Assembly (NCBI GenBank): GCA_964627365.1
Contig: CAZVJS010000002.1
Location: 1-35,353 of the forward strand
Reading direction: 5' to 3'
Source: an uncultured Candidatus Saccharibacteria bacterium
GTDB lineage: Bacteria > Patescibacteriota > Saccharimonadia > Saccharimonadales > CAZPPF01
Length of the DNA: 35,353 bases
Shown here piece after piece: positions 1 through 20,389 of the stretch. Numbering within the stretch: position 1 is the stretch's first letter; every line of letters starts with the position of its first letter. A program made the position numbers and the translations under genes. The notes below the pieces were generated by a model, which searched no databases, had not been told where the DNA came from, and was given only the letters and a program-made list of their open reading frames with translations.

Positions 1-52
<52 letters not shown>

Positions 53-66
53 ATTCGCTTATGCTT

Positions 67-96
67 AAATCCTTATCTTCTAGATGAGGATTTTTG
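67..96 (+). terminator. Rho-independent terminator after tRNA-Glu
   Basis: Stem aaatcct (67-73) pairs with aggattt (87-93) and extends inward by tatc/gatg. A T-run follows at 91-95. Confidence 0.6.
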
Positions 97-109
97 ATAT
101 CATTACTTG

Positions 110-943
110 ATGAGTACGAACCCCGTTGTAGCCTACTATCGCTCAATTGAATCTCGTTTTGGCTACCGTGTGTTAAAGGGGGTGAAACATTTTGGATATT
201 ATCCTAGCGACAAACCGGACATATCAATGAGTCATGCGCAAATGCTTATGAATGCGCAACTTGCTTTAAGACTAGACCTGCCCAATGGAAGTAAAGTATT
301 GGATGCGGGGTGTGGGGAGGGTAATGTAGCACTCTACATGGCAAAAAATCATGGAATGAATGTTGAGGGCATTGACTTGCTTGATTTCAACGTAACAAAT
401 GCTAAAAAGACTGCATTAAGTCAAGGTATTACCGACATGACAAAATTTCAAGTTGGGACATACATGAATCTGCCGTTTGCTGATAACTACTTCGATGCCG
501 TATATACTATGGAGACGCTTGTCCACGCACCTGATTACAAAAAAGCCTTGACCGAGTTTTACCGAGTACTAAAACCAGGCGGCAAGTTAGTATTGTTCGA
601 GTACACTATCATCGCAGACAATGATGTTAAGCCTTTGCAACAAAAAGCGATAAAACGAATCAAACAAATAAATCGTGTTGCCGCAATGCCTGCCTTTAAC
701 GAGTTCACTTTCGGGAGCATGCCGGCAAAATTATCAGCAGCAGGTTTTAAAAAAGCTGCAACCACAGATATAACACCTCGAATGTTGCCATTATTGAAGA
801 AGTTCCACGACAAAGCCAAATTTATTTATATAATGTCACGATTACTTCACCTGGAAAATCACTTGATTAATGGAATGTCTGCAGTTGAATTTTATGAAAA
901 TCAAGACCTTTGGAAATATGAAATTAGTACAGCCATCAAATAG
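110..943 (+). CDS. Class I SAM-dependent methyltransferase (type-11, Erg6/CFA-synthase-like)
   Basis: ORF with ATG at 110 (TTG one codon upstream at 107). SAM-binding motif I VLDAGCGEGN and the downstream LKPGGKLVLFEY motif are present. Confidence 0.75.
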   Translation: MSTNPVVAYYRSIESRFGYRVLKGVKHFGYYPSDKPDISMSHAQMLMNAQLALRLDLPNGSKVLDAGCGEGNVALYMAKNHGMNVEGIDLLDFNVTNAKKTALSQGITDMTKFQVGTYMNLPFADNYFDAVYTMETLVHAPDYKKALTEFYRVLKPGGKLVLFEYTIIADNDVKPLQQKAIKRIKQINRVAAMPAFNEFTFGSMPAKLSAAGFKKAATTDITPRMLPLLKKFHDKAKFIYIMSRLLHLENHLINGMSAVEFYENQDLWKYEISTAIK

Positions 944-974
944 TGGCATTTGAATAAACCCTAACGGCTTATTT

Positions 975-1087
975 GGTTCCACTCATCGCTGGAATGTTAC
1001 TCGCCAGCGTATTACCCTTGTTCAGTTCAATCCACTCGGTGATTTCTGACAGGATATGGTTCCAATTCGACCCCAGTTGGTTCACCA
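975..1087 (+). repeat. Repeat A: 113-nt tRNA-3'-end-like intergenic element
   Basis: About 83% identical to 1834-1945 by hand alignment. It ends in ...ttggttcacca, followed by atacgcttatgctta, which matches the tRNA-Glu end plus flank (47-67) at 20 of 21 positions. The helix cgctgg/ccagcg (987-992/1005-1010) is kept in copy B through G-U changes. Confidence 0.8.
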
Positions 1088-1103
1088 ATACGCTTATGCT
1101 TAT

Positions 1104-1134
1104 AGACCTCTGTAAAAGGAGGTCTATTTGTTTG
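1104..1134 (+). terminator. Rho-independent terminator (copy 1 of a module found three times)
   Basis: agacctc (1104-1110), loop tgtaaaag, gaggtct (1119-1125), then atttgtttg. Near-identical hairpins occur at 15220 and 16102. Confidence 0.7.
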
Positions 1135-1160
1135 CAAACAAAGAATTCTAAGCTTATGCT
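1132..1160 (+). promoter_or_regulatory. Sigma70-like promoter for pilin-like gene 1
   Basis: -35 ttgcaa (1132-1137), 17-nt spacer, -10 tatgct (1155-1160). The ATG lies 8 nt downstream of the -10 box with no Shine-Dalgarno sequence. The geometry at 16129-16157 is identical. Confidence 0.5.
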
Positions 1161-1168
1161 TAAAACTA

Positions 1169-1834
1169 ATGATTAAACTAAACAGCAACGAATTAGGCTT
1201 TGGTGTTATTGAAGGAGTGTTAATCTTAGTTTTCGTTGGTCTTATTGGTTTTGTCGGTTGGTACGTTTGGCATAATCGTGCAACAAACACAGCTAACACT
1301 CCCTCTGCAAATGCTACATCAAGTAAACCCAAGACCACAGCCAAATCATTAGATGCAAAAGTAGACGAAACTGCAGGCTGGACGAGCTATAACAATGCCG
1401 CTATAGGGATTACGTTTAAGTATCCAAGCGAATGGAAAGTTCAAGATGTACTGCCCTGTAACGAAAACTCTACTTCTGCAACAGGACAAGAATGTGCCGT
1501 AAACTTAACCTGGAAAGCAAGTACTGATAAATATCCACCCACAATCTCAATCGAAAGGCTCTCTCATAGTTACAGTAGTTTAGAAAAGTTCTACGATGAT
1601 TACTACGCCCAGTCAGATTTAAACAAGGTAACGAAAGAAACGATTCAAGTCCAGGGCAAATCAGCAACAAAATACACTGTTGTTAATTCGGGCAACACTT
1701 CAAAACAAATCCTTATTAAGTCGGGGGACAAAGTATTCAACTTTTTTAGTGTGAATGAAGCATCATCTGCTCAGGGCTTAAATTACCAAGATGCTTTCGA
1801 TAAGATATTCAATACTTTTAATTCAATTAACTAG
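1169..1834 (+). CDS. Type IV pilin-like protein (prepilin-type N-terminus, unique C-terminal domain)
   Basis: N-terminus MIKLNSNELG|FGVIEGVLILVFVGLIGFVGWYVW has Gly at -1, Phe at +1 and Glu at +5, followed by a hydrophobic helix. An S/T/N/P-rich linker and a globular domain with 2 Cys follow. Confidence 0.7.
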   Translation: MIKLNSNELGFGVIEGVLILVFVGLIGFVGWYVWHNRATNTANTPSANATSSKPKTTAKSLDAKVDETAGWTSYNNAAIGITFKYPSEWKVQDVLPCNENSTSATGQECAVNLTWKASTDKYPPTISIERLSHSYSSLEKFYDDYYAQSDLNKVTKETIQVQGKSATKYTVVNSGNTSKQILIKSGDKVFNFFSVNEASSAQGLNYQDAFDKIFNTFNSIN

Positions 1835-1945
1835 GTTCCACTCAACGCTGGAATGCCATTGACCGGTGTGATACCCTAGTTCAGTTCAATCCACTCTGTG
1901 ATTTCAGACAAGATATGGTTCCTATTCGACCCAGTTAGAACACCA
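1834..1945 (+). repeat. Repeat B: second copy of the tRNA-3'-end-like element
   Basis: It starts at the last base of the pilin stop codon. It ends in caccaattcgctta (1941-1954), identical over 14 of 14 positions to the tRNA-Glu end plus flank (48-61). Confidence 0.8.
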
Positions 1946-1962
1946 ATTCGCTTAGTTTAAGT

Positions 1963-1992
1963 TTGACATAAGCTTTATGCCAGAACTATTAT
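1963..1992 (+). promoter_or_regulatory. Candidate promoter for the 2018-2512 gene
   Basis: -35 ttgaca (1963-1968), 18-nt spacer, -10 tattat (1987-1992). Confidence 0.4.
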
Positions 1993-2017
1993 TAGCTAAA
2001 TAACTCAAGGCAAAAAA

Positions 2018-2512
2018 ATGAAAAAAGTAAAATTCCCAGATATAAAATTCTTGACTGTTTTTGTCTTATTGTTCGCTGGTATCGGCTCATACTTGCTCAT
2101 GCAAAGCCACGCGGCAACGGTTCCATATTCACAATTTTTGACATACACAAATGCTGCACAAACCACTGGAGTTGGTACATCCACTGACTACGTGAATCAA
2201 ATTGGAACTCAGACAGTGTCACAGGTGGCTGCTGGCGGGCAACTCACCTACGTTGTTGGCGGTAAAGTAGCAATTAAATCTATGTGTTATTTTCTGCGTG
2301 CTGTAAATCCAAAAGGAGTCGGCAATACTGCTACAGTAGAACTAACCAATCAATATAAATCTATTGTAATTTCGCTACCTATTGCTGCTGAGTATCAGGA
2401 ATACTGCGTTGGAACTGCTAAAAACGGCAGTCTAAAGCCCTACAACGTCTACAACAAGTCTGCTCAGGATGGTCCACAAGTGTTGATCTATCAAACAGTT
2501 GTAAATTACTAG
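2018..2512 (+). CDS. Secreted hypothetical protein
   Basis: Sec-type signal peptide MKKVKFPDIKFLTVFVLLFAGIGSYLLMQSHA|A. An SD-like aagg sits 9 nt upstream. I recognise no domain. Confidence 0.6.
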   Translation: MKKVKFPDIKFLTVFVLLFAGIGSYLLMQSHAATVPYSQFLTYTNAAQTTGVGTSTDYVNQIGTQTVSQVAAGGQLTYVVGGKVAIKSMCYFLRAVNPKGVGNTATVELTNQYKSIVISLPIAAEYQEYCVGTAKNGSLKPYNVYNKSAQDGPQVLIYQTVVNY

Positions 2513-2516
2513 AATA

Positions 2517-2616
2517 GGTTCTCTGTAGGTTTGGATTCGAACTGGGGTGAAACACCAGTTGTTCTGAAACAAATCCACTTTGTTAGATTTACCCCTGTTC
2601 AAACTAAGCATAAGCA
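2517..2616 (+). repeat. Repeat C: degenerate, rearranged third copy of the A/B element
   Basis: ggtttggattcgaactggggtgaaacacca resembles the 3' segment of A/B. gttgttctgaaacaaatccact resembles the A/B middle part (gttcagttcaatccact). It ends with aagcataagc, the reverse complement of gcttatgctt. Confidence 0.5.
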
Positions 2617-2634
2617 GGTAAAATCAAGGAAAGA

Positions 2635-4071
2635 ATGGATACAACTACTCGCGTACCAAACGTGCCGCTGGCCAAATTCAAGCGCACCAAGATCATTGCC
2701 ACGGTTGGACCCTCAACCGACAGCTATGAAGCAATACTCAAACTGCTCAAAGCCGGAGCCAATGGTTTGCGCCTAAACTTTAGTCATGGAACTTATGAAG
2801 AACGCGAGCGTCAGATCAAATGGATTCGGAAGGCCGCTCACGAATACGGTAAGCCGGTAGCAATTATTCTAGATTTGCAGGGCCCTAAGATACGTTTGGG
2901 AGATTTCGACGGCGTTATCATGGTAAATGCCGGCCAAAGCCTGGCACTAAAATACCAGGCAGATTACGAAAGATCAGGCATTATTCCCACGCAATATGAC
3001 CTAAGTAAAAAGGTCAAGCGTGGTCAGCCGCTCCATATTTACGATGGAAAAGTTCGTACAGAGGTCACCAGCGTCAAAGATGGCGTTGTGCACATTCGGG
3101 CCAAGAACAACGGCATTCTGATTAAGCGCAAAGGCATTAATTTGCCGGAGACAGACTTTGGCGGGGATATTATTACCACCAAAGACCGCCGCGACCTGGC
3201 CTTTGGTTCTGAGCATGACATAGATTATGTGGGACTAAGTTTTGTGCAACACTCCCGTGATATAGCCAAGCTACGTACATTGCTCAAAAATCTGGGCACC
3301 AACGCTCGGATCATTGCCAAGGTAGAAACCGCCGCTGCAATTGAAAATATCGAAGCAATTGTGCAAGAAGCTGATGCTGTCATGGTTGCCCGCGGTGACC
3401 TAGCCACCGAGACATCACCTGAGTCCGTGCCTATTGTGCAGCGCAGAATTGTGGGTTTAGGGCTACATTATGCCAAGCCAACCATTGTAGCTACCCAAAT
3501 GTTAGCTAGCATGATGGAAGAACCGGAGCCAACTCGGGCTGAAGTTTCGGACGTAGCCACAGCAGTGATAATTGGTGCTGATTGTGTGATGCTGAGCGAT
3601 GAAACGGCCACCGGCAAGTATCCTATCGACGCCGTCAAGGTAATGAAACGGGTGATTTTGTATACTCAGGAGAATAACCCAATCGAAACTGTTCGTTTTG
3701 TGGATGTTGCCCCCGACAGGAGCCGACAAACTTCTATTTCGACCGCTGTTATCAAGCTGGCTAGCACCATTCAGGCCACTGCAATTGTGGCCGAGACAAA
3801 GTCTGGCGCAACTGCCCTCCAGATTGCCGCCCAACGCCCAAAAATTCCTATTATTGCTGTGACCTCAGATGACCGCACTGCTCAGCAGTTGGCATTGGTA
3901 TATGGATCCAAAAGTTATGTCCGACCGGCCGACAAACTAGCTGCCACTAAATTGACCAACTGGCTTTTGCAAAACAATGTGCTCAAGAAAGGTGAAATTG
4001 TAGTGACAGCTTCTGGGCAATATCCGGGTGTGGTGGGAACTACAGACACAATCAAAGTCCGGGTGTTATAG
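2635..4071 (+). CDS. pyk: Pyruvate kinase
   Basis: 478 aa with TKIIATVGPS, LNFSHG and MVARGDL motifs. SD aaggaaag lies upstream. Confidence 0.93.
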   Translation: MDTTTRVPNVPLAKFKRTKIIATVGPSTDSYEAILKLLKAGANGLRLNFSHGTYEERERQIKWIRKAAHEYGKPVAIILDLQGPKIRLGDFDGVIMVNAGQSLALKYQADYERSGIIPTQYDLSKKVKRGQPLHIYDGKVRTEVTSVKDGVVHIRAKNNGILIKRKGINLPETDFGGDIITTKDRRDLAFGSEHDIDYVGLSFVQHSRDIAKLRTLLKNLGTNARIIAKVETAAAIENIEAIVQEADAVMVARGDLATETSPESVPIVQRRIVGLGLHYAKPTIVATQMLASMMEEPEPTRAEVSDVATAVIIGADCVMLSDETATGKYPIDAVKVMKRVILYTQENNPIETVRFVDVAPDRSRQTSISTAVIKLASTIQATAIVAETKSGATALQIAAQRPKIPIIAVTSDDRTAQQLALVYGSKSYVRPADKLAATKLTNWLLQNNVLKKGEIVVTASGQYPGVVGTTDTIKVRVL

Positions 4072-7002: not shown

Positions 7003-9150
7003 GTGACAGAGGATATTCTAAGTGGGTTAAATCCAGAACAACTACGAGCGGTCAAAACTACCGAAGGGCCACTGCTAATTCAGGCTGGAGCCGGGTCAGG
7101 AAAGACCAAAACTCTGACGCACCGCATTGCCTTTATTATTGCCAGCAAGAAGGCTACACCGCCTAATATTTTGTCGGTGACCTTTACCAACAAAGCGGCT
7201 CGTGAAATGCGTGAACGTATCGCTCGGCTTTTGGGTGAACATTCAGAAAACAGAGCTTTTATGCCATTCATGGGCACCTTCCACAGTATTTGCGTGCGGA
7301 TTTTGCGCCAAGACGGTGAGCACTTAGGTTTACCCCGCAGCTTTGTAATCTTTGACGATAGCGACCAACAAGCTGCTATCAAACAAGCCTCCAAGCAACT
7401 GCTGATTGATGAAAAAAGCTTTCCACCACGGCTACTTGGTAGCTTGATTAGTAGCGCCAAAAACGAGCTGATTGGTCCAAGTGAATATGCCAACCATCAA
7501 AATAGCCCAGCCGAGCGAGCCACGGCTCAAGTTTTTCCAGTTTACGAGCAAATTTTGCGCAATGCCAAAGCGTTGGACTTTGACGATCTGATCGGCAAAA
7601 CCGTCAAATTACTGGAAACCCAGCCAGCAATTCGCGAGAAATGGCGTGAGCAGTTCAAGTACGTAATGATCGACGAATACCAAGATACCAATGCCGCCCA
7701 GTACCGCTTGATCAAGTTGTTGACCAATGATCATAACAACATTGCGGTGGTGGGTGACGACTGGCAATCTATCTACTCCTGGCGCGGTGCAGATTTTCGT
7801 AATATTCTTAACTTTGAAAAAGACTATCCAAAGTGCACGGTGATCAAGCTTGAGCAAAATTACCGCAGTACCAAGGCTATTTTGGATGCCGCTCATGCCG
7901 TGATTAGCAAAAACCTCCAACGCTCTGACAAAAAACTATGGACGGCTGCTGGGCACGGCTCGCCAGTCCAATTGGTGCAAGTGGGCAGCGAGCGGGCCGA
8001 GGCCGAAGCGGTCATTCGCCGAGTTCAAAATACGGTTGATGCTGGACTGCGCACTTACAACCATTTTGCGGTTTTGTATCGTACCAACGCCCAAAGTCGC
8101 AGCTTGGAAGAAAGTTTTGTGCGCTACGGGGTGCCATACCGGATTGTCGGCGGCGTACGATTCTACGACCGCAAAGAAATCAAGGATATCTTGGCGTACC
8201 TGAGGTTGATTTATCAGCCAGAGGATTCAGTAAGTTTTGAGCGGATTGTAAATGTACCAACCCGCGGCATCGGCACAAAGTCTTTGCAGGGCTTTGACGC
8301 CTGGAAGCGTCGCAATAGTTTGGGTTTACAACACGCGCTAGAGCGAGCCAACGAGATTGAGGAGCTTACCCCCAAAGCTCGCCAAGCATTCGGTGAACTA
8401 GGTGACACGCTGGCCAGCTTACGTGAAGTTATGCAAGATGCTCCCGTGGCGGCGCTGCTCGATTCGCTAATCCGGCGCATTAACTACTATGATTACTTGG
8501 ACGATGGTGGTCCTCAGGGTGAATCTCGCAAGGAAAACGTCAAAGAACTCTGTAGTGTAGCCCAAGAATATAACGACCTTGGTCTTGATGGATTTTTAGA
8601 AGAAATTTCCCTGGTTAGCGACCTAGATAGAGCAGATTTTAATAATAACGCCGTTACACTAATGACCCTGCATGCCGCCAAAGGCCTGGAGTTTCCGGTG
8701 GTATTTATGGCTGGTATGGAAGAAAGCATTTTTCCGCACTCTAGAGCGCTGTATGATCAGTCCGAAATGGAAGAAGAACGCAGGCTCTGCTACGTGGGCA
8801 TGACCCGCGCTCGTGAGGAGCTGTACCTGATGTACGCCAGCGCTCGGTTATTGTATGGCGGCATGCAACATAATCCACCTAGCCGTTTCTTGAGCGAAAT
8901 CGAAGATCTTTCGCAGTCCAATCCTTATCCTGACACTGGCAACAATCAAACTGACGTTTGGAACCAATCTAACGCTGCCGCAAACGAGCCAAAGTACGTT
9001 CCAGAACTGAACGAAGGTGACGCCGTTCGACACCGCCTGTTTGGTGATGGTACGGTCATGGAGCTGGCTGGCGACGAAGCCGTGATTTACTTCAAAGGCA
9101 AAGGGGCCAAAAAGCTCAATATTGCCTTTGCGCCACTTGAAAAGCTTTAG
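7003..9150 (+). CDS. pcrA: ATP-dependent DNA helicase PcrA/UvrD
   Basis: GTG start. SF1 motifs AGAGSGKT and DEYQDTN and the typical C-terminal tail (RHRLFGDGTV...) are present. Confidence 0.92.
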   Translation: MTEDILSGLNPEQLRAVKTTEGPLLIQAGAGSGKTKTLTHRIAFIIASKKATPPNILSVTFTNKAAREMRERIARLLGEHSENRAFMPFMGTFHSICVRILRQDGEHLGLPRSFVIFDDSDQQAAIKQASKQLLIDEKSFPPRLLGSLISSAKNELIGPSEYANHQNSPAERATAQVFPVYEQILRNAKALDFDDLIGKTVKLLETQPAIREKWREQFKYVMIDEYQDTNAAQYRLIKLLTNDHNNIAVVGDDWQSIYSWRGADFRNILNFEKDYPKCTVIKLEQNYRSTKAILDAAHAVISKNLQRSDKKLWTAAGHGSPVQLVQVGSERAEAEAVIRRVQNTVDAGLRTYNHFAVLYRTNAQSRSLEESFVRYGVPYRIVGGVRFYDRKEIKDILAYLRLIYQPEDSVSFERIVNVPTRGIGTKSLQGFDAWKRRNSLGLQHALERANEIEELTPKARQAFGELGDTLASLREVMQDAPVAALLDSLIRRINYYDYLDDGGPQGESRKENVKELCSVAQEYNDLGLDGFLEEISLVSDLDRADFNNNAVTLMTLHAAKGLEFPVVFMAGMEESIFPHSRALYDQSEMEEERRLCYVGMTRAREELYLMYASARLLYGGMQHNPPSRFLSEIEDLSQSNPYPDTGNNQTDVWNQSNAAANEPKYVPELNEGDAVRHRLFGDGTVMELAGDEAVIYFKGKGAKKLNIAFAPLEKL

Positions 9151-10500: not shown

Positions 10501-11304
10501 ATGGATGATCCAACACCAAAGAAGTCTCTCGGGCAGCACTGGCTCAAAGACGCTGAAACGCTTCAAACTATTGCCGATCAAGCCCAAGTTAATGCCAATG
10601 ATGTAGTGCTAGAAGTCGGTCCAGGTTTGGGCACACTAACACAGGTGCTGGTAAAACGGGCTCAAAAAGTTATTGCCGTAGAGTTCGACCAAGTATTGCT
10701 GAATCAACTCCAAAGTGTTTATAGCCTCCTGCCACGCTACGATGAAAAACTGGAGCTTATTCACGCAGACATTTTACACTTCAACTTAGACATTTTGCCA
10801 CTTGGCTACAAGGTAGTAGCCAACATTCCCTACTACATCACCGGCAATTTACTCAGAACACTATGTGAGGCCAAAAACCACTTTAGCCAAGCTGCGTTGC
10901 TGATTCAAAAAGAAGTAGCCGAGCGAGTGGTAGCTGGGCCTGGCAATATGAGCATGCTTAGTGTTAGCGTGCAATTTTATACCAAGGCCAGTCTGGGCCC
11001 GGTGGTTGAAGCTAGCAAGTTTACACCACCTCCAAAAGTTGATTCACAGGTACTTATTCTTGAACACCATGGACCGATGTTCAAAGATGTCGACACCAAA
11101 GAGTTTTTCCGATTGGTCAAAGCCGGTTTTAGTGAACGACGTAAAAAACTACGCAGTAGCTTGAGCGGGGGATTACGGGTAGACAAAAATACAGTAGAGC
11201 AATTGCTTGAAAAGTCAGGAATTTCAGCCGATGCTCGAGCCCAAGAACTATCGCTTGACCAGTGGTACTCCCTATACATAACACACCATCACAAAAACAC
11301 TTGA
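10501..11304 (+). CDS. rsmA: 16S rRNA (adenine1518/1519-N6)-dimethyltransferase
   Basis: SLGQHWL and VLEVGPGLGTLT motifs; 267 aa. Confidence 0.92.
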   Translation: MDDPTPKKSLGQHWLKDAETLQTIADQAQVNANDVVLEVGPGLGTLTQVLVKRAQKVIAVEFDQVLLNQLQSVYSLLPRYDEKLELIHADILHFNLDILPLGYKVVANIPYYITGNLLRTLCEAKNHFSQAALLIQKEVAERVVAGPGNMSMLSVSVQFYTKASLGPVVEASKFTPPPKVDSQVLILEHHGPMFKDVDTKEFFRLVKAGFSERRKKLRSSLSGGLRVDKNTVEQLLEKSGISADARAQELSLDQWYSLYITHHHKNT

Positions 11305-11349: not shown

Positions 11350-11814
11350 ATGGGACCGACAAACAACATAGGATACTTGATACAACGTCTATCCTTTTGC
11401 TTGGCCCGCCAGTCCGACCAAGTATTGCAGGAACAACTCGGAATTGGGCTCTCGCAGTTTAAAATTTTGATGGTACTCGGTTGGCATTCCAACGTTCAAC
11501 AACGTCATATCGCCGATAAACTGGGCCAAACAGAGGCGAGCATAAGTCGTCAGATCAAACTCTTGAAGGACAAGGGTTTACTGACAACTGAAATAAGTCC
11601 ACAGAACCGTCGTGAGCACATTACCAAGCCAACTGCCAAAGGCCAACGCTTGAGTGACAAGGCTCTCGAAGTTCTAAATGACTATCATTCTCCCATGTTT
11701 GCTAAGCTCAGTGAAAAACAACAAAAAGAACTGTTGGAAAATCTAACGACGTTATACGACTACGCATGCATGACCGAAAAACCAAGCAATTTATTACATA
11801 AACCCCATAAATAA
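11350..11814 (+). CDS. MarR-family transcriptional regulator
   Basis: 154 aa with a winged-HTH signature (QQRHIADKLGQTEASISRQIKLLKDKGLL). SD aggag lies upstream, and efflux pump genes follow directly. Confidence 0.85.
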   Translation: MGPTNNIGYLIQRLSFCLARQSDQVLQEQLGIGLSQFKILMVLGWHSNVQQRHIADKLGQTEASISRQIKLLKDKGLLTTEISPQNRREHITKPTAKGQRLSDKALEVLNDYHSPMFAKLSEKQQKELLENLTTLYDYACMTEKPSNLLHKPHK

Positions 11815-11825
11815 GAAGGAGGAAT

Positions 11826-13133
11826 ATGGCTAAAAACGATTCAAGCCGGTTTGAAGGACGCGCCCTGCCAATTGTTCTATTTACAGTCTTTCTGGACGTT
11901 CTAGGCGTTGGAATTTTACTTCCCGTCCTGCCACAACTTATCTTTAAGATTTTCGAACCCGCAGGGTTCTCGCTGAACGGTTCGCTGATTATACTTGGCT
12001 GGCTGGTCGGTATTTATCCTCTTATGCAGTTTTTGGCTACGCCAATTTTGGGTCAGTTGTCTGACCGCTTTGGCCGTAAGCCCATCTTGGGCTTCAGCTT
12101 AGCTGGTACATCAGTGGGGTATATTTTGTTTGCCATTGCTATTTTGACCAAGAGTATCCCGCTACTGTTCTTTGCTCGAGCCTTTGATGGTATAACGGGT
12201 GGAAATATTAGCGTGGCACGTGCTGTTATCGCTGACACAACGCCCCCGGAACACCGGACCCGTAACTTTGGCCTGATGGGAGCGGCTTTTGGGTTTGGCT
12301 TCGTGATTGGCCCATATATTGGGGCACGCTTAGCTAGCCCTAACCTTAGTTTCTATGGCTTATTTAATACGCCGCACTGGTTTAATACTGCCACTCCATT
12401 CTGGTTTACGGCCATCTTGAGCGCGATCAATGTGATGCTCGTTATGTTTATTTTGCCCGAGACCAACCAGCGTATCCAGCGGGCCGTCAAGATTGTTTGG
12501 ACAAAATCACTCGAAAATATACGTAAGGCTGCAGCGGCTCCGGGACTCCGGGTCATTTTTGGTTCAGAGTTTCTATTTTGGAGTGGATTTGCATTCTTTA
12601 CCACCTTTTTCCAGATCCGATTGATTGAAAAACTCCACTTTACCCCAAGCAACATTGGTGATTATTTTGCCTATTTTGGAATCATCATGGTTTTAGTCCA
12701 GGCAGTGTTGGTACCTTTGTTGGCCAAGCGCTTCAAGAATCACCAAATACTTCGTTTTAGTTTTTTGGGGGTGAGTGCCGCTTTATTCCTTCAGCTACTG
12801 GCTACTAATACCACTCAGCTTTTGCTGATCACTATTTTTATGCCAATTTTTGTAGGGTTGACTATAGCGAACGCCACAACCTTGATCAGTTTGTCGGCCG
12901 GAAAGGATATTCAGGGTGAGGTGTTGGGTATCGAAGCTAGTGTCCAGGCTCTGGCTCAGTCCATACCGGCCATCATTGCTGGCTATATAGCCACGCTAGG
13001 AGTTAACATGCCTGTGATTGTAGCCGGATCGATTGTGTTTACGGCTGGCGTAGTCTTTAACACGTTCTACCGACCATCCAGTCATGTGCTTCATCAAGAA
13101 GGAGCTGACGAACTCGCGACAGCAGCAGAATAA
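11826..13133 (+). CDS. MFS transporter, DHA1-like (12 TMS)
   Basis: MFS motif A GQLSDRFGRKP. SD aaggagg at 11816-11822. Confidence 0.85.
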   Translation: MAKNDSSRFEGRALPIVLFTVFLDVLGVGILLPVLPQLIFKIFEPAGFSLNGSLIILGWLVGIYPLMQFLATPILGQLSDRFGRKPILGFSLAGTSVGYILFAIAILTKSIPLLFFARAFDGITGGNISVARAVIADTTPPEHRTRNFGLMGAAFGFGFVIGPYIGARLASPNLSFYGLFNTPHWFNTATPFWFTAILSAINVMLVMFILPETNQRIQRAVKIVWTKSLENIRKAAAAPGLRVIFGSEFLFWSGFAFFTTFFQIRLIEKLHFTPSNIGDYFAYFGIIMVLVQAVLVPLLAKRFKNHQILRFSFLGVSAALFLQLLATNTTQLLLITIFMPIFVGLTIANATTLISLSAGKDIQGEVLGIEASVQALAQSIPAIIAGYIATLGVNMPVIVAGSIVFTAGVVFNTFYRPSSHVLHQEGADELATAAE

Positions 13134-13148
13134 AAGAAAGGAGTAATA

Positions 13149-14765
13149 ATGGCCTTAAGACTTATTAGAAAAAGGGATTACGTTCCCGAGCAAGTTTACC
13201 AGAGACGCTGGTGGATTTTGGCAGTACTGTGTTTGGCGCTTTTTATAGTGATGATAGACAACACGGTACTGAACGTTGCGCTTCCAACGCTAAGCCGAGA
13301 ATTACACGCCACTAGCTCGCAATTGCAGTGGATGGTAGACGCCTACTCCTTAATCTTTGCCGGACTCTTGTTTACGGCAGGAGCGGTCGGTGACCGCTAT
13401 GGGCGAAAAGGCATCTTTCAGGCAGGGTTGTTATTATTTGGTCTGACATCTGCCTACACTGCCTTTATTGCCAGCAGTGCTACGGCCGTTATTTTTGCTC
13501 GTGGTGCGATGGGTTTGGCTGGAGCTATGATTATGCCCGCTACTCTGTCTATTCTCACCAACGTCTTCCCGCCAAAAGAGCGTGCTAAAGCTGTTGGTAT
13601 CTGGTCGGGAATTGTTGGTGTGGGAGTGGCGGTTGGCCCTGTACTGGGTGGCTTTTTACTGGACCATTTTTCATGGCATTCGGTGTTTACCATTAACATT
13701 CCAATTGTGATTGTTTGTCTAATTGCCGCAGCTTTTATTGTCCCACGTACTGCAGATCCATCACATGCCAGTTTGGACCCGCTTGGTGGCTTTTTGTCTA
13801 CCGTTGGTTTAGTGGCGCTGGTCTACGCCATTATTGAAGCCCCCAACAAGGGTTGGTTGGCTGCCTCAACCCTTCTGATTGGTAGCATGGCAGTGCTTAT
13901 ACTTGCGCTGTTCTACTGGTGGCAGCTGCGTGCTAAACACCCAATGTTAGATGTACGGCTGTTCAAAAACAAAGCTTTTGGTATTAGCGCTTTCTCGATT
14001 GGCTTAGTATTCTTCTCGCTATACGGTATTTTCTTTAGTTTTTCGCTGTTTCTGCAGCTCATTCACGGCTACTCACCGCTAGAGGCCGCGATACGAATGT
14101 TGCCAATTGCCGGTGTGCTGGCCTTTGCTGCTCCGTTGTCCACCGTGCTAGCCAAACGCCTTGGCAAACGCAGAATAGTTGGAAGTGGAATGCTCCTAGT
14201 AGCACTTGGTGTACTCATATTTTCAACAGTTGGGATTACTTCGTCCTACCTACATTTGCTGGCGGGCATGTTAGTCATGGCCTTTGGCATGGGGCTGGCA
14301 ATGTCGCCAACTACTGACCTGCTCATGTCCTCGGTACCCAAGAACCGGGCTGGTATGGGCTCGGCTATGAACGATACTGCCCGTGAACTAGGTGGTGCAC
14401 TTGGTGTTGCGGTTCTGGGTAGCTTGCTGGCTTCTCAGTACACGCGTCAGATCTCGGGTGCTCTAACGGCATTGCCCGCTACCGCCAAGCAAGTGGCTGA
14501 AGGTTCACTGGCCGGTGCAATGGGTGTGGCTCAGCAAATTGGTGGCACAGCTGGCCATGAGGTCCTGGTAGCCGCACAAAACGCTTGGATGAGCGGTTTC
14601 CATCGTTCGCTGGTAATTGGTGCCGCCATCATTACCGTTGCAGCTATAGTGGCCTTTAGGGGTCTACCGGATATAGCTCAAGATGTTATTCCGGAAGAAG
14701 GCTACTTTGAAGAGGATGAAGAAGCTGAGCAAAAAAAGCCAGCAAAAGCCACTGCTACAGACTAG
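13149..14765 (+). CDS. MFS transporter, DHA2/EmrB-like (14 TMS)
   Basis: Motif A GAVGDRYGRKG; 538 aa with about 14 hydrophobic segments. SD aaaggag lies upstream. Confidence 0.85.
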   Translation: MALRLIRKRDYVPEQVYQRRWWILAVLCLALFIVMIDNTVLNVALPTLSRELHATSSQLQWMVDAYSLIFAGLLFTAGAVGDRYGRKGIFQAGLLLFGLTSAYTAFIASSATAVIFARGAMGLAGAMIMPATLSILTNVFPPKERAKAVGIWSGIVGVGVAVGPVLGGFLLDHFSWHSVFTINIPIVIVCLIAAAFIVPRTADPSHASLDPLGGFLSTVGLVALVYAIIEAPNKGWLAASTLLIGSMAVLILALFYWWQLRAKHPMLDVRLFKNKAFGISAFSIGLVFFSLYGIFFSFSLFLQLIHGYSPLEAAIRMLPIAGVLAFAAPLSTVLAKRLGKRRIVGSGMLLVALGVLIFSTVGITSSYLHLLAGMLVMAFGMGLAMSPTTDLLMSSVPKNRAGMGSAMNDTARELGGALGVAVLGSLLASQYTRQISGALTALPATAKQVAEGSLAGAMGVAQQIGGTAGHEVLVAAQNAWMSGFHRSLVIGAAIITVAAIVAFRGLPDIAQDVIPEEGYFEEDEEAEQKKPAKATATD

Positions 14766-14800: not shown

Positions 14801-15209
14801 GGGGCTGAATTTTAAGCTCGACGTTGGACTTTATCGGTTATATCAGCAGGTCGCTTGTCAGCGTATAGACAAACTTCAATAATTGCAAAATTATTTGATC
14901 GCGTAGCAAGTGCTGTTAGTAACGGAGTTAACGCTTTTGTTGCTTCTATCAGCACCCCTGTTTACGCAACAGCTTAAGTTACGACTTGAGCCACGTCTAA
15001 CATGACTTCAGATAGTGCTATGACGTGTCATATTATCTGGATGCGCAGACTTTACTGTCCATAAAATCTGTTAAGACTTTAGGACTGCTGTGTGCAACTT
15101 TTTGTCCGTTTACCGGTTGCATACCTAAGACATCTAAGCGGACTAAGCCTGTAGAAGATTAACCAAGATAAACTAGCGGACGTGGGGGCAGTACCCACCA
15201 GCTCCACCA
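14801..15209 (+). ncRNA. ssrA: tmRNA (transfer-messenger RNA), 409 nt
   Basis: The 5' ggggctga...tcgacg and 3' ggac-gtggg-ggcagta-cccac-cagctcc-acca align with the E. coli tmRNA ends. The acceptor stem carries the G3:U70 alanine identity pair. An internal tag frame ends ...PVYATA with TAA at 14975-14977. Confidence 0.9.
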
Positions 15210-15219
15210 TAAGCACTTT

Positions 15220-15246
15220 GACCTCTGTAAAAAGAGGTCTTTTTGT
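15220..15246 (+). terminator. Rho-independent terminator of ssrA (module copy 2)
   Basis: gacctc (15220-15225), loop tgtaaaaa, gaggtc (15234-15239), then tttttg. A ttgaca box at 15247-15252 follows. Confidence 0.75.
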
Positions 15247-15307
15247 TTGACATTTGTTGTGCAGACCTGCAAAATATTAAGTGATAATAGCAAAAAGGAT
15301 AAAAAAT

Positions 15308-15934
15308 ATGGATGAAGCTCAACCACCAAATCAACAAATGAATGCCGGACAAACTGAGGAAACTCATGACGCATCTGTTCATCAGATTCATCCCGAACAT
15401 GCAGGCGTAGGTATTAACGAGAGGCTCACTGCTATAGGAATTAATCCTTCGGGTCTTGTCCCTGAAACTGAATACGTAGCTGACCAAGCTGCCAAGACTG
15501 AAGCCAGAGAGCAAGAAGCGAAAGTGCTGGAATGGCAAGAACTTGTTGACGGAGTACGCAAAGACCTTGCTTACCGTCGTGACCAAGAGGAGGCTCGTCT
15601 CAGGACTGACTTTAATAGGGGCTATATTAGAACCGAGGAACTGGCTGCAAAAAGACTGTCCCAAATTGATGAAGCTATCGCAAGGGGGGCTATGAGAAGC
15701 AAGCAGTACAGTGGTGGCACTTTGCCAGGTGGCAGTATGTTTGAAGCACCCCGACTATATCAGACTTACTATGAATCGGTTGATGAGCAAGGCAACATTT
15801 GGCGAGAATATGAGTCGGTAAACCCCAGAGACGGGGCAGAATTAACTGGAAACCCAGAGCCTGTAGGTAAACGCATGTACATGGAAAATCCAACTCTTCC
15901 CCCCCAGGCTAGTGAAGAGCAAACTGCTTCGTAG
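15308..15934 (+). CDS. Hypothetical soluble protein
   Basis: ATG at 15308 preceded by aaagga. The sequence is hydrophilic with no TM helix and no domain I recognise. The ORF-track start at 15281 (GTG) is an extension. Confidence 0.5.
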   Translation: MDEAQPPNQQMNAGQTEETHDASVHQIHPEHAGVGINERLTAIGINPSGLVPETEYVADQAAKTEAREQEAKVLEWQELVDGVRKDLAYRRDQEEARLRTDFNRGYIRTEELAAKRLSQIDEAIARGAMRSKQYSGGTLPGGSMFEAPRLYQTYYESVDEQGNIWREYESVNPRDGAELTGNPEPVGKRMYMENPTLPPQASEEQTAS

Positions 15935-15948
15935 AGAATTGTCAGTTA

Positions 15949-16091
15949 GGGCGTATACCCTCAGGTAACTAATAACCTCTTACGCAGCTCTTCCTCTCTT
16001 TTGAACTCAATGTAATCATCCCAGAGTAAATACCTCCATCTCTGTATTTCCTCTAATATGAGGGGTGAACTTTTTTCAAGGTGGTCCACCA
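15949..16091 (+). repeat. Repeat D: 143-nt intergenic element ending in ccacca
   Basis: Direct repeat of 16755-16896, roughly 80-85% identical by eye and near-identical over the 3' 100 nt. It begins 14 nt after the stop codon of the preceding gene. Confidence 0.8.
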
Positions 16092-16101
16092 ATTATGATT
16101 T

Positions 16102-16127
16102 GACCTCTGTAAAAGGAGGTCTTTTTG
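16102..16127 (+). terminator. Rho-independent terminator (module copy 3)
   Basis: gacctc (16102-16107), loop tgtaaaag, gaggtc (16116-16121), then tttttg. Confidence 0.7.
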
Positions 16128-16128
16128 T

Positions 16129-16157
16129 TTGCAAATCCAAAGTTCTATGCTTATGCT
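16129..16157 (+). promoter_or_regulatory. Sigma70-like promoter for pilin-like gene 2
   Basis: -35 ttgcaa (16129-16134), 17-nt spacer, -10 tatgct (16152-16157). The ATG lies 9 nt downstream with no SD. Confidence 0.5.
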
Positions 16158-16166
16158 TAGACTAAT

Positions 16167-16754
16167 ATGATAAAACTCAACAGCAAGGGCTTAGGTGTTA
16201 TAGAGGTAATATTAGTGGTTGTGATTGTAGGGTTAATCGGTGGGGTTGGATACTTTGTATACCAGTCTAAGAAAAATACCGACCAGATTTTAAATAACAC
16301 TGCCAACTCGCAAGGTACACCTGAAAAATCCACAAAAACCTCCACCAAACCAACAACACCGTCTAATACAGTGACTACAACCAATACGGATCCTAACTAT
16401 TTGATCATAAAAGAGTGGGGAGTAAAGGTAAAAATTCCGAATGCAAATCGTTTATCGTACGAAATAGTGTCGCAGTCTGGCGACGGTACGACACCTGATG
16501 GCTCAGCCGAATACGTAGACACTGCTCGTTTGTCATTGGCAGATTCAATTACTACCGATACTTCGTGCAAAAGTATTGGAATAGGAATTGGACGGGCAAA
16601 GCTTATTAAATCAACATCTTCTTTGCCTACGGTAGGGAATTACGTATTCGAAGTGGGTGGAAGTCCCTATGCGTGTGGGAACGCTCAGCTTGACGCCATT
16701 CGAGCAACTTATACTGGCAATAACCCATCGAGCTGGACATATTCTGCGAACTAA
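16167..16754 (+). CDS. Type IV pilin-like protein (paralog 2, different C-terminal domain)
   Basis: N-terminus MIKLNSKG|LGVIEVILVVVIVGLIGGVGYFVY has Gly at -1 and Glu at +5. A T/S/P/N-rich linker and a globular domain with 2 Cys follow. Confidence 0.7.
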   Translation: MIKLNSKGLGVIEVILVVVIVGLIGGVGYFVYQSKKNTDQILNNTANSQGTPEKSTKTSTKPTTPSNTVTTTNTDPNYLIIKEWGVKVKIPNANRLSYEIVSQSGDGTTPDGSAEYVDTARLSLADSITTDTSCKSIGIGIGRAKLIKSTSSLPTVGNYVFEVGGSPYACGNAQLDAIRATYTGNNPSSWTYSAN

Positions 16755-16896
16755 GGGCGTATACCGATAGGGACTACCAACCTCTTTCGTCGTTCTTACT
16801 CTCTTTTGAACTCTATGTAATCACCCCAGAGTAGATACCTCCATCTCTGTATTTACTCTTCTATGAGGGGTGAACTTTTTTCAAGGCAATCTACCA
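16755..16896 (+). repeat. Repeat E: second copy of the D element
   Basis: It starts immediately after the pilin stop codon (taa|gggcgtatacc) and ends in ctacca. Confidence 0.8.
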
Positions 16897-16897
16897 C

Positions 16898-16926
16898 TTT
16901 GAATATTTTCCAGCTTATGCTATAAT
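16898..16926 (+). promoter_or_regulatory. Candidate typA promoter (extended -10)
   Basis: -35 tttgaa (16898-16903), 17-nt spacer ending in the extended -10 element tgc, then tataat (16921-26). Confidence 0.5.
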
Positions 16927-18856: not shown

Positions 18857-19189
18857 ATGATTATGTGGCTTCCCGCTGAAATACCTCTAAAATATTGGAG
18901 TGATATTGTAGAGACTGAGTATGAAGAAGACGACGTAGCAGAAACAAAAGAGCTATTGTCTCAACCTCCCGGACCTTCGGTCGTGCGTGTTCTTGGGGAT
19001 ACTGGTCTGGTGCTTGCAACTCAGATACGGCTCCATGACTTTGGGGATCTAGAAGTTGGTTCAGCAAAAATAGAAGCCGTAAAAACACACCCAGGATGGC
19101 TGGGTCTAGAAGCGGCCTGTATAAAAGAGAACCTAGAAACCGCCGATTTTATTATCCAAAAATTCATAGGCCAAACTGTTGTAACGTAA
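18857..19189 (+). CDS. Small acidic hypothetical protein
   Basis: 110-aa ORF. Its stop (19187-19189) lies 2 nt before the next ATG. I recognise no domain. Confidence 0.45.
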   Translation: MIMWLPAEIPLKYWSDIVETEYEEDDVAETKELLSQPPGPSVVRVLGDTGLVLATQIRLHDFGDLEVGSAKIEAVKTHPGWLGLEAACIKENLETADFIIQKFIGQTVVT

Positions 19190-19191
19190 AT

Positions 19192-19929
19192 ATGTCTAAA
19201 AACTTTGCCGAACTTGCTTCTGAACCAACCCAATACGACAATGGTGAACTAAGCTGGGCTTCTGAAGGCGAAAAGCAACACTTTACCAGACGTATGATTC
19301 TTGAAGCCATTACGCCTTACCTTGGGGATGTACAGGGCGAGCGTATTTTGGACGTTGGCTCGGGTCTTGGCTGGCTGTGTGATGAGTTAACACTTCAGGG
19401 TGGAAAAACTGTAGGCATAGAACCCTCGGCAACCAATATGGATGCTGCCAAAAAGCAATTTCCTGAACTCGATTTTCGACATACTTCACTGGAAGAATTC
19501 GACACAACCGAACAATTTGACCTTGTTACTGCAACTATGGTTTTTGAGCACCTTGGAGATCTTGGAAAAACTTACGAGAAATTAGGCACCTTGTTAAAGC
19601 CTGGAGGCAGGTTGGTAGTATTGAGTGGTGATTTTGAAAGATTTACTCTACCACGATTCGATTATCAGATAGATGTCCAGCCCATTCAGGACGATGAGGT
19701 GGCAGTCAGAACGGACTATGGAGAACGTGCTGGCGTTTTTTACGACATTATCCGAACTCCTGATAGGTTTATTGGTGAAGCAACTTCTCACGGCTTTGAA
19801 CTAAGCGGACATACCCCTTACGCCGTTCCGCGCTGGGTTCTTACCGAAATGCCTAGGTACAATGTTTTTGAAGGTAAACCTCTTTTTCAAGTATTTGAAT
19901 TCGAGCCAGCGACTTCTAAAAATGGCTAG
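19192..19929 (+). CDS. Class I SAM-dependent methyltransferase
   Basis: The ATG at 19192 gives MSKNFAEL.... Motif I ILDVGSGLGWL and LKPGGRLVVL are present. The ORF-track start at 19096 overlaps the previous gene and is unlikely. Confidence 0.75.
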   Translation: MSKNFAELASEPTQYDNGELSWASEGEKQHFTRRMILEAITPYLGDVQGERILDVGSGLGWLCDELTLQGGKTVGIEPSATNMDAAKKQFPELDFRHTSLEEFDTTEQFDLVTATMVFEHLGDLGKTYEKLGTLLKPGGRLVVLSGDFERFTLPRFDYQIDVQPIQDDEVAVRTDYGERAGVFYDIIRTPDRFIGEATSHGFELSGHTPYAVPRWVLTEMPRYNVFEGKPLFQVFEFEPATSKNG

Positions 19930-20389
19930 TAACCCAGAACTGACCTGTGTTATATCAGGTAGCTTTAAGTTCAAGCCCGAAATTGATGCTGATATGGATG
20001 AGCTAAGAGAGTACAACATTAGAGTGTTATCGCCAGGAAAGGGCTGGCTGTATACCCCAAAATTAGCGGTAGTAAAAAACATTGGCATCAGACCTTTGCC
20101 TGATGAGCGTTGGATGGAAGTTGACGAGATTGAACCCAGCTTTCTTTATCACATGGATAATTCGCACTTCGTCTATCTTCATAATCAAGAAGGCTATGTC
20201 GGCGAAATGGTTGGTTTTGAAATGGGTTGGGCAATGCGCGGAGGCAAGCCAATCTATGCTAAAGAAACGCTCAACTATGATGCCATGCAATGGGACAATC
20301 CGTTTACATTTCCGGCACTAGAGAAGTACGTCAAAGTTATGCCAATCCCCGATATACGTGATGATTACCTGAGTACGCAAACCCCGTAG
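19922..20389 (+). CDS. Nucleoside 2-deoxyribosyltransferase-like (Rossmann-like) protein
   Basis: ATG at 19922 overlaps the methyltransferase stop by 8 nt. The N-terminal CVISGSFKF and later VYLHNQEGYVGEMVGFEMGWAMRGGKPIY resemble the NDT-family pattern (Gly-rich N-terminal strand ... G..E.G.A...gKPi). This assignment is from motif memory only. Confidence 0.4.
   Translation: MASNPELTCVISGSFKFKPEIDADMDELREYNIRVLSPGKGWLYTPKLAVVKNIGIRPLPDERWMEVDEIEPSFLYHMDNSHFVYLHNQEGYVGEMVGFEMGWAMRGGKPIYAKETLNYDAMQWDNPFTFPALEKYVKVMPIPDIRDDYLSTQTP

Follow-up and report, generated by a model that had tools for sequence, protein, structure and literature searches.

Islander-type genomic islands cross over at the 3′ end of a transfer RNA (tRNA) gene, or tDNA, and integrative elements that borrow a host recombinase, such as Xer-dependent IMEX elements and pdif modules, are small cargo units without one of their own, some of them with a small accessory activator protein. 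In Saccharibacteria and other Patescibacteria, whose genomes are about 1 Mb, the acquisition of accessory genes is poorly understood. Here we describe two arrays of small gene cassettes, one beside a tRNA-Glu gene and one beside the transfer-messenger RNA (tmRNA) gene, in a stretch of 35,353 nucleotides (nt) from an uncultured Candidatus Saccharibacteria bacterium (GenBank assembly GCA_964627365.1, contig CAZVJS010000002.1, positions 1 to 35,353; hereafter the window). The cassettes are closed by repeats of 115-145 nt, the modules, whose opposite strand encodes a small protein of about 40-45 amino acids (aa), here called S.

Tandem tDNA islands with tyrosine integrases resemble these arrays in docking at tRNA and tmRNA genes while leaving the RNA gene intact, in a displaced copy of the 3′ end at the far end, in newer units lying next to the RNA gene, and in presence/absence variation. 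They differ in that here the units and arrays examined yielded no integrase, the units measure about 0.6-1.3 kb and usually hold one cargo gene, and the displaced copy, of only about 8-30 nt, lies inside the start of a conserved small gene. PMC4383910 gives precedent for serial integration at tRNA and tmRNA genes and treats displaced 3′-end copies as the classical scar. Prochlorococcus tycheposons likewise build islands by serial integration beside a few tRNA genes and the tmRNA gene of a streamlined genome, in arrays separated by partial tRNA repeats, with adaptive or defence-like cargo and with newcomers pushing older elements outward (bioRxiv 10.1101/2020.12.28.424599). It was through their integrases that they were discovered, and modules for integration and replication connect their types (bioRxiv 10.1101/2020.12.28.424599). 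Whereas tycheposons carry a tyrosine (or large serine) recombinase and a replication module, neither is in the array gene tables here; the arrays have instead S in every unit, and S was not found outside arrays.

Integrons, and clusters of attC sites lacking integron-integrases (CALINs), are alike in their mostly single-gene cassettes, a closing module of 60-150 nt, strain-variable content and a recombinase outside the cassettes. The arrays here are mostly of single open reading frames (ORFs), with three and two cassettes in the window and six to seven and six, respectively, in the contigs L184 and L175. However, the modules do not follow the inverted-repeat hairpin design of attC (R''-L''...L'-R'), and where integrons have IntI and attI at the array head, the heads here are tRNA-Glu and tmRNA, with no IntI adjoining. 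The modules also differ in being sequence-conserved and protein-encoding, and the cassettes bring their own terminator and promoter-like sites. With IMEX and pdif modules the arrays share small recombinase-less cargo modules, but the cores are direct repeats of an RNA-gene end, and no dif-like site was recognised, no search having been aimed at dif. We found no description of such arrays in the literature on Saccharibacteria or the Candidate Phyla Radiation (CPR) with tmRNA, cassettes, integrons or genomic islands, which is not proof of absence. In our reading, the arrays represent site-specific island accretion at tRNA and tmRNA genes without an element-borne integrase, and there is a realistic chance that they form a distinct cassette platform.

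The intervals from tRNA-Glu to the pyruvate kinase gene pyk and from tmRNA to typA are insertion hot spots that hold small cassettes head to tail. Docking is at the exact CCA end of the two RNA genes, and direct repeats of that end bound the units. The unit backbone is constant: a core (..CACCA), a terminator hairpin, a promoter-like region, usually one cargo gene, and S, which starts in the core. The pattern of sequence variation indicates both selection on S and an extra constraint in cis beside the core. The features of the first array are given below; the labels L020-L030 denote relatives compared at the tRNA-Glu/pyk locus, L169 a contig covering the region upstream of tRNA-Glu, and L171-L193 the contigs in which arrays were examined.

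1-52, plus strand: 3′ part of tRNA-Glu(UUC), with the docking core CACCAA at 48-53 (Rfam)
53-1088, plus strand: cassette 1, with junction and hairpin (about 67-96), S-adenosylmethionine (SAM) methyltransferase gene (110-943) and terminal module A
972-1088, minus strand: S_A, an intact 39-codon ORF, LVNQLGSNWNHILSEITEWIELNKGNTLASNIPAMSGTK, which fills element A and starts with TTG GTG, CACCAA in reverse complement
1089-1946, plus strand: cassette 2, with terminator (1102-1127), gene for a membrane-anchored or secreted protein (1169-1834) and module B
1834-1946, minus strand: S_B, a counterpart of S_A disrupted by stop codons and a 1-nt deletion; the core CACCAA is at 1941-1946
1947-2558, plus strand: cassette 3, with promoter-like site (1963-1992), gene for a 164-aa secreted protein (2018-2512), module remnant (2517-2552) and core CACCAG (2553-2558)
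2559-2634, plus strand: native tRNA-Glu flank and pyk promoter region, outside the repeat; alignable to the spacer between tRNA and pyk in L024/L025, and to L023 and L020

The window opens inside tRNA-Glu(UUC), so that positions 1-52 are the 3′ two-thirds of the gene with its encoded CCA (Rfam tRNA, 36.2 bits, model positions 23-71); full-length orthologues are present in the relatives L020-L030. An initial annotation of this DNA, made from the letters alone, had pointed to repeats of the tRNA end and to two long elements, A and B, of about 83% identity, and both observations hold. The 21-mer TCACCAATTCGCTTATGCTTA (47-67) recurs at 1082-1102 with 20 of 21 bases matching, and the 14 bases CACCAATTCGCTTA, from CACCA onward, recur exactly (14/14) at 1941-1954; blastn within the window recovers these junction copies as 22/24 (E 9e-5) and 16/17 (E 0.05). 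Elements A (975-1087) and B (1834-1945), 859 nt apart, are 83.6% identical over 122 nt (blastn, E 2e-32) and 85% identical ungapped over 99 nt. Given these E values, the repeats are real and not chance matches. The elements had also been said to begin at or just after a stop codon; A starts 31 nt past that of the methyltransferase (Pfam Methyltransf_11, E 4e-25), and B overlaps the stop codon of the gene that follows. In S_B the block NHILSEITEWIELN is the same as in A, with three synonymous changes. The cargo genes of the three cassettes are mutually unrelated. A hairpin and T-run follows each junction, the one at 1102-1127 found by a terminator scan and the one at about 67-96 by eye, unflagged by the scan; the promoter-like site of cassette 3 comes from a promoter scan.

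A third element, C (2517-2616), had been read as a rearranged copy. By blastn it has no similarity to A or B, although its 5′ 40 nt resemble the module weakly, by eye, and are followed by the degenerate core CACCAG (2553-2558). What comes next is native tRNA-Glu flank and then the conserved promoter region of pyk: in the alignment, GGTGAAACACCAGTTGTTCTGAAACAAAT of C corresponds to GGGATCACCAAATGTTTTTAAATAAAT of L024, where it is tRNA 3′ end plus native flank, and to the matching stretches of L023 and L020. Therefore, the repeat makes up part of C, not all of it.

Comparison with relatives shows how variable the interval is. The relatives were found through pyruvate kinase, and all are metagenome-assembled genomes (MAGs) of Candidatus Saccharibacteria or Saccharimonadales. 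In the window, 2582 nt separate tRNA-Glu from pyk, and in these relatives the gap is 67, 78, 584, 708, 1000, 1306, 3871 or 4076 nt; L024 and L025, at 67 and 78 nt, have an empty site. In the closest relative, L020, whose pyk is 89% identical, tRNA-Glu is followed by 24 unrelated bases and then by a homologue of window 1955-2640 at 78% identity (L020 5321-6006), so that window 57-1954, comprising cassettes 1 and 2, is extra. The alignment thus makes exactly these two cassettes the additional DNA, cassette 3 being older and common to both genomes. Window DNA is also present in soil metagenome contigs at 99.5% identity (the soil runs with the locus being available as assembled contigs, not reads), and contigs of the same soils connect window position 53 directly to 2589, as in relatives with an unoccupied site. 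The bases right after the present tRNA, ATTCGCTTATGCTTA..., are unlike the native flank and are therefore part of cassette 1. The synteny comparison that the initial annotation called for has thus revealed presence and absence of cassettes among relatives, which do not carry the same three genes.

Other inserts use the same tRNA-Glu. Unrelated ones, with their own tRNA 3′-end copies, occur in L021 (755-768), L026 (2207, 5137) and L023 (~1620); the S module is absent from these inserts, and it follows that several element types use the site. In L169, the sole long ORF in the roughly 1.6 kb upstream of the same tRNA-Glu reads as surface-protein-like (by inspection, no Pfam scan having been made of it).

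The second array surfaced when a soil contig compared with the window matched near 15.2 and 16.1 kb. Its features are as follows.

14801-15209, plus strand: tmRNA gene, the second docking site, ending in GCTCCACCA (Rfam RF00023, 70.8 bits, E 8.5e-26)
15210-16092, plus strand: cassette 1′, with terminator (15220-15239), promoter-like site (15247-15275), gene for a 208-aa protein of no family (15308-15934) and module D1
15964-16092, minus strand: S_D1, an intact 43-codon ORF, (M)VDHLEKSSPLILEEIQRWRYLLWDDYIEFKREEELRKRLLVT (hidden Markov model, HMM, E 4e-24)
16093-16897, plus strand: cassette 2′, with terminator (16102-16121), gene for a 195-aa membrane-anchored protein (16167-16754), module D2 and degenerate core CTACCAC (16891-16897)
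16756-16897, minus strand: S_D2, a broken S copy with in-frame stops

The tmRNA gene was detected by Rfam and missed by ARAGORN. Between it and typA are two cassettes of one gene each, both of them ending in a repeat of about 145 nt. The modules D1 and D2 are about 85% identical and end in the tmRNA-like GGTCCACCA or in the decayed CTACCAC, and the tmRNA end with its terminator is repeated at 16086-16131. The module beside tRNA-Glu ends like tRNA-Glu (GGTTCACCAAT versus GGATCACCAAT) and the one beside tmRNA ends like tmRNA (G[C/G]TCCACCA). Across both arrays the displaced RNA-end copies, at 1082-1102, 1941-1954, 2553-2558, 16083-16091 and 16891-16897, are 6-31 nt long. Cassettes 2 and 2′ have terminator, promoter-like region and signal anchor in common (77% over 142 nt); their proteins are alike in the first 44 residues only, and the two cassettes end in different repeat types. 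Genes near the head of the tmRNA array encode a major facilitator superfamily (MFS) transporter, MarR and KsgA.

A further motif, GCTTATGCT(T)A, is seen at 54-67, 1089-1102, 1149-1162, 16148-16160 and 16913-16923, and inverted at 2604-2614; these positions lie at cassette junctions or upstream of genes, with the inverted copy in the pyk promoter. The motif may function as a TG-extended -10-like promoter element, or else as a binding site for a protein. If it is a promoter motif, part of the 21-mer junction repeat is not attachment (att) sequence.

Arrays of the second kind are not confined to the window. Six independent contigs (L181, L182, L184, L188, L189 and L191) have tmRNA, cargo and opposite-strand S, with one to seven cassettes per array, each closed by S. 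L184 is syntenic with the window (uvrD ... ksgA, marR, MFS, tmRNA ... typA) and has its six to seven cassettes between tmRNA and typA, together with a longer displaced tmRNA 3′ fragment at 9109. Contigs L171-L180 have four to six cassettes, in sets that differ between samples. Besides the window, such arrays are present in 21 further contigs, which amount to about 10 distinct arrays. There are few left-end (terminator) types, and several genomes have them in common: two or three alternate within L184, and the type flanking tmRNA in the window follows two of the S copies of L184. The T-arm region of tmRNA also recurs in inverted orientation past the terminator, some 45 nt downstream from the core, in L181 (~11720-11750, GGGGAATTGCACCCGAGAGG) and in L184 after the S copies at 10756 and 9291.

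As cargo, the arrays carry genes for methyltransferase, secreted or anchored proteins, APH-type kinase, acetyltransferase, KAP NTPase, reverse transcriptase, an HNH/Vpar_1526 protein, a CdiA_C toxin domain, cupredoxin and many proteins of no family. Among these, CdiA_C (L193 10235-10624), RVT_1 (L188 10766-11662), KAP NTPase (L171 7316-8851) and APH-type kinase (L184 12192-13154) are defence, conflict or resistance-type genes. In L182, a multi-gene island of 6.6 kb lies between tmRNA and S. The absence of an integrase within or beside the tRNA-Glu array, noted earlier by eye, is borne out by Pfam scans of pyk, of the genes in the three cassettes and of 30 other ORFs within about the first 32.9 kb of the window. 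Likewise, no Phage_integrase, resolvase, or tyrosine or serine recombinase is in the gene tables of L171-L193; one rve transposase (insertion sequence-like) is present in L182.

Beyond the initial annotation, then, lie the second array, the native half of C, and the nature of the long repeat, which is a small gene starting in the att core. The start of S is (A/T)TG GTG (TTG; ATG in some copies), the reverse complement of the core CACCA(A/T). S is intact in A (39 aa) and D1 (43 aa) and broken in B and D2, and 17 distinct intact copies were gathered. The modules are abundant in soil. On D1, the summed depth of soil contigs over the 3′ 80 nt of the module reaches about 1000, against 13 at unique flanks, and in one soil run more than 100 contigs match the D-type module, all diverging right after 16091/16092. 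The 3′ 46 nt of A match at least five other contigs per soil run, all diverging right after CACCAAT, position 1087. Since the modules are not unique to this locus, the outcome that would have told against the earlier proposal was not found.

The variation among these copies has the signature of a coding sequence. Over the D family in the more than 100 soil contigs, 15 of the 22 variable sites fall at third codon positions of the minus-strand ORF (p 9e-4), and pairwise differences between S copies at codon positions 1, 2 and 3 are, for example, [0,2,12], [0,1,11] and [1,2,14]. Judged by this pattern, purifying selection acts on S. When 1.84 billion representative proteins were searched with a profile, 52 S clusters emerged, of which all but one are of 32-114 aa, the lone exception being a marginal, fragmented match of 312 aa; a second search returned 108 clusters, few with an organism label, and those Saccharibacteria or Saccharimonadales. 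As the clusters are nearly all short, S is not the N-terminus of an integrase or other large protein. S has no family in Pfam, PADLOC or PHROGs and was not found in IMG/VR, sequenced phages or plasmids. Structure prediction for S_D1 gives essentially one long helix (predicted local distance difference test, pLDDT, 85). The tRNA-Glu type, A/B, can be assigned with less certainty to a divergent branch of the S family. The link of the A-type ORF to the D family is drawn because, read from the shared start, it matches D1 S in 9 of 24 residues (p<1e-5, anchored-identity test), and because there are intermediate 'SNW' copies in tmRNA arrays, one of which it matches in 8 of 24 residues (p 1e-4).

Two other readings of the coding signal were tried and rejected. 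A C-terminal coding remnant on the plus strand was ruled out by the lack of codon bias between A and B in that frame, and a split integrase of the SSV type because the minus strand upstream of TTG GTG stops after six codons, with no start. The S-module plus strand contains ATGAGGGG, and gene callers start long ORFs there or nearby: a '443-aa' gene overlaps the S module (loci L171 5354-6738 and L175 3342-4780), and many database S entries have false N-terminal extensions that read through the terminator.

Conservation next to the core goes further than the protein. Third-position entropy over the 17 intact copies is 0.26 in codons 1-11 and 0.36 in codons 5-11, a range not forced by the pattern used to select the copies, against 1.10 in codons 12-35; and no variable site occurs at 16058-16090 among the soil contigs. 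Therefore, the 33 nt beside the core appear frozen beyond what the protein would need, which points to action at the DNA or RNA level. There are two candidates for this constraint: an arm of a recombination site, and the weak hairpin and T-run that a terminator scan found on the plus strand of the D-type module, which could terminate the cargo transcript.

How, then, would units without a recombinase come to be stacked at two RNA genes? The initial annotation had offered serial integrase-less islands or a cassette-shuffling element, and in outline this is supported by the insertions relative to relatives, the CCA-end boundaries and the recurrence in at least six other contigs. We propose, giving the proposal an even chance, that the units are integrative cassettes lacking an integrase of their own, which a trans-acting recombinase adds at the CCA end, with homologous recombination also reshaping the arrays. 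A site-specific recombinase encoded elsewhere would act on a cassette site made up of the 5′ region of S, the core and the terminator, and would fuse it with the CCA end of the RNA gene. With every arrival the RNA gene would regain a terminator, while older cassettes would be displaced outward and their S and core would decay, as the series A intact, B broken, C remnant and D1 intact, D2 broken suggests. The frozen 33 nt beside the core would be as expected for a cis-acting site, and once arrayed, cassettes could be deleted or swapped by homologous recombination between modules. It is tempting to propose that S serves the cassette itself, probably in mobility or maintenance, because selection appears to keep it in each cassette lineage.

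Several observations weigh against a trans-acting recombinase. The assembled contigs revealed neither a recombinase nor a circular form nor an excision junction. The gradient from intact proximal to decayed distal copies holds in the window, but not cleanly in L175. The coding case is weaker for the tRNA-Glu type, as the D-type HMM gives the A-type ORF no significant score and the differences between A and B by codon position, [8,6,6], have no overall third-position bias. The only recent cassette difference that can be mapped, three cassettes between L179 and L171, breaks inside S and not at the core: at S positions 15 and 48 the copy of L179 agrees with the downstream module, and at 54, 86 and 105 with the upstream one. 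This breakpoint points to homologous recombination. Furthermore, a direct repeat in L181 runs at least 80 nt past the core at about 90% identity, above what a site-specific core would need. Because of the L179/L171 switch and the L181 repeat, it is certain that homologous recombination between modules reshapes the arrays; in principle, it could also build them.

The strongest alternative takes up that last point and dispenses with a site-specific recombinase altogether. A block of S, core and terminator (about 200-250 nt) would be portable homology, through which DNA taken up by competent cells recombines with the block and the tRNA or tmRNA gene, adding, swapping or deleting cargo. We regard this as unlikely, though deserving of serious attention. 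The breakpoint of the L179/L171 three-cassette difference between S positions 48 and 54, the length of the L181 repeat of core and flank, the alternation of two or three left-end types in L184, seen in the window also, and the lack of an integrase in any array examined all accord with it, and natural competence of Saccharibacteria is reported in PMC10187176. However, in the tRNA-Glu array the similarity to the tRNA ends after only 14-31 nt, a short stretch for exchange driven by RecA. Each of the two module types imitates the final bases of its own RNA gene, which is what an att core would do, and the exact divergence of soil contigs after CACCAAT (1087) and after 16091/16092 is likewise at odds with exchange through long homology. 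Nor does this alternative give any role to the selection on S in every cassette lineage.

In a less probable explanation, which we hold to be improbable overall, each cassette is the stump of a classical island or prophage, an integrase-bearing element in the tRNA or tmRNA gene of which nearly everything has been deleted. Docking at tRNA and tmRNA genes with displaced 3′-end copies is indeed the classical scar, as described in PMC4383910; L184 also has a longer displaced tmRNA 3′ fragment, and the unrelated inserts of L021, L023 and L026 have tRNA-end repeats. Yet Pfam found no integrase, or fragment of one, among the called genes of the window and the 21 contigs (about 10 arrays). Counter to this explanation, too, the units have a uniform backbone, whose module begins directly behind the cargo stop codon and keeps the same extent throughout. 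The purifying selection inferred for S, which is not the N-terminus of a longer protein, and the absence of S from the viral, phage and plasmid collections searched also speak against it.

Far weaker still is a reading the initial annotation had left standing, in which A and B are tRNA-like 3′ untranslated regions of the cargo, processed by RNase P/Z or acting as stability elements. The modules do lie just 3′ of cargo stop codons and end in ..CCA, the D-type hairpin and T-run may terminate cargo transcripts, and CGCTGG/CCAGCG in A becomes CGCTGG/CCGGTG in B, a change that, by eye, keeps the pairing through G-U. But ARAGORN calls no tRNA in A or B and, with E values as high as 10 allowed, Rfam yields no family, the folding energies lie within the shuffle range on both strands (z -1.4 to +1.3), and the variation has a 3-nt periodicity in the opposite-strand frame. 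We consider a structured RNA effectively excluded, for the conserved signal is coding on the opposite strand. The GGTTCC...CCA segments, once likened to a T-arm and acceptor, are direct and not inverted repeats, and have no such structure by the same tests. A displaced full tRNA copy was ruled out, as only the last ~30 nt are tRNA-like, and so was identity with integron attC, as the modules lack inverted symmetry and no inverted repeat lies inside them. Exact scans with 16-20-mers of the A/B cores gave only chance matches in species-representative genomes, viral contigs and JGI metagenomes (L170 is one such), and a 22-mer of the D module had no match in viral contigs.

Finally, purely local tandem duplication of one cassette end, without mobility, might be thought of for two elements 84% identical and 859 nt apart in one locus, but it is effectively excluded, being refuted by three unrelated cargo genes, by module copies in at least five other contigs per run (A type) or more than 100 (D type) and in many other genomes, and by presence/absence differences in relatives.

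A broader form of the accretion proposal would see the arrays as an integron-like gene-capture platform of Saccharibacteria, with docking at the CCA ends of the tmRNA gene and of some tRNA genes, about 40 nt of frozen DNA plus core by which cassettes are recognised and in which S also starts, and a helical 43-aa S that helps a chromosomal recombinase to insert or excise cassettes, stockpiling defence, toxin, surface and resistance-type genes. This is offered tentatively, the balance of probability being somewhat against it. If true, cassette arrays at the tmRNA gene, conserved and free of a recombinase, would give the Saccharibacteria lineage a route of gene flux that is both defined and testable, and such a platform would stockpile genes of these kinds in tiny epibiont genomes. 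A protein start codon that overlaps a recombination core is an unusual design, and it could couple the expression of S to integration state. In practical terms, S plus the CACCA core is a compact sequence signature for locating arrays, and S is a small protein family of about 108 clusters that annotation pipelines mostly miss or mis-start.

Outside the arrays, the window holds housekeeping genes downstream of tRNA-Glu, among them pyk, pgk, tpi, uvrD, ksgA, the tmRNA gene, typA and metG. Just past typA, at 18857-20389, lie a second SAM methyltransferase gene (19096-19926) and two ORFs without a Pfam family; no S module was found in this patch, which may be another accessory one. Upstream of tmRNA, at 11826-14765, there are two MFS transporter genes. 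The next-best relatives of one, encoding a 538-aa transporter, are in Actinomycetota and Acidimicrobiia at 45-60% identity, and the gene is not syntenic among Saccharibacteria. It could have been transferred from the actinobacterial hosts of these epibionts.

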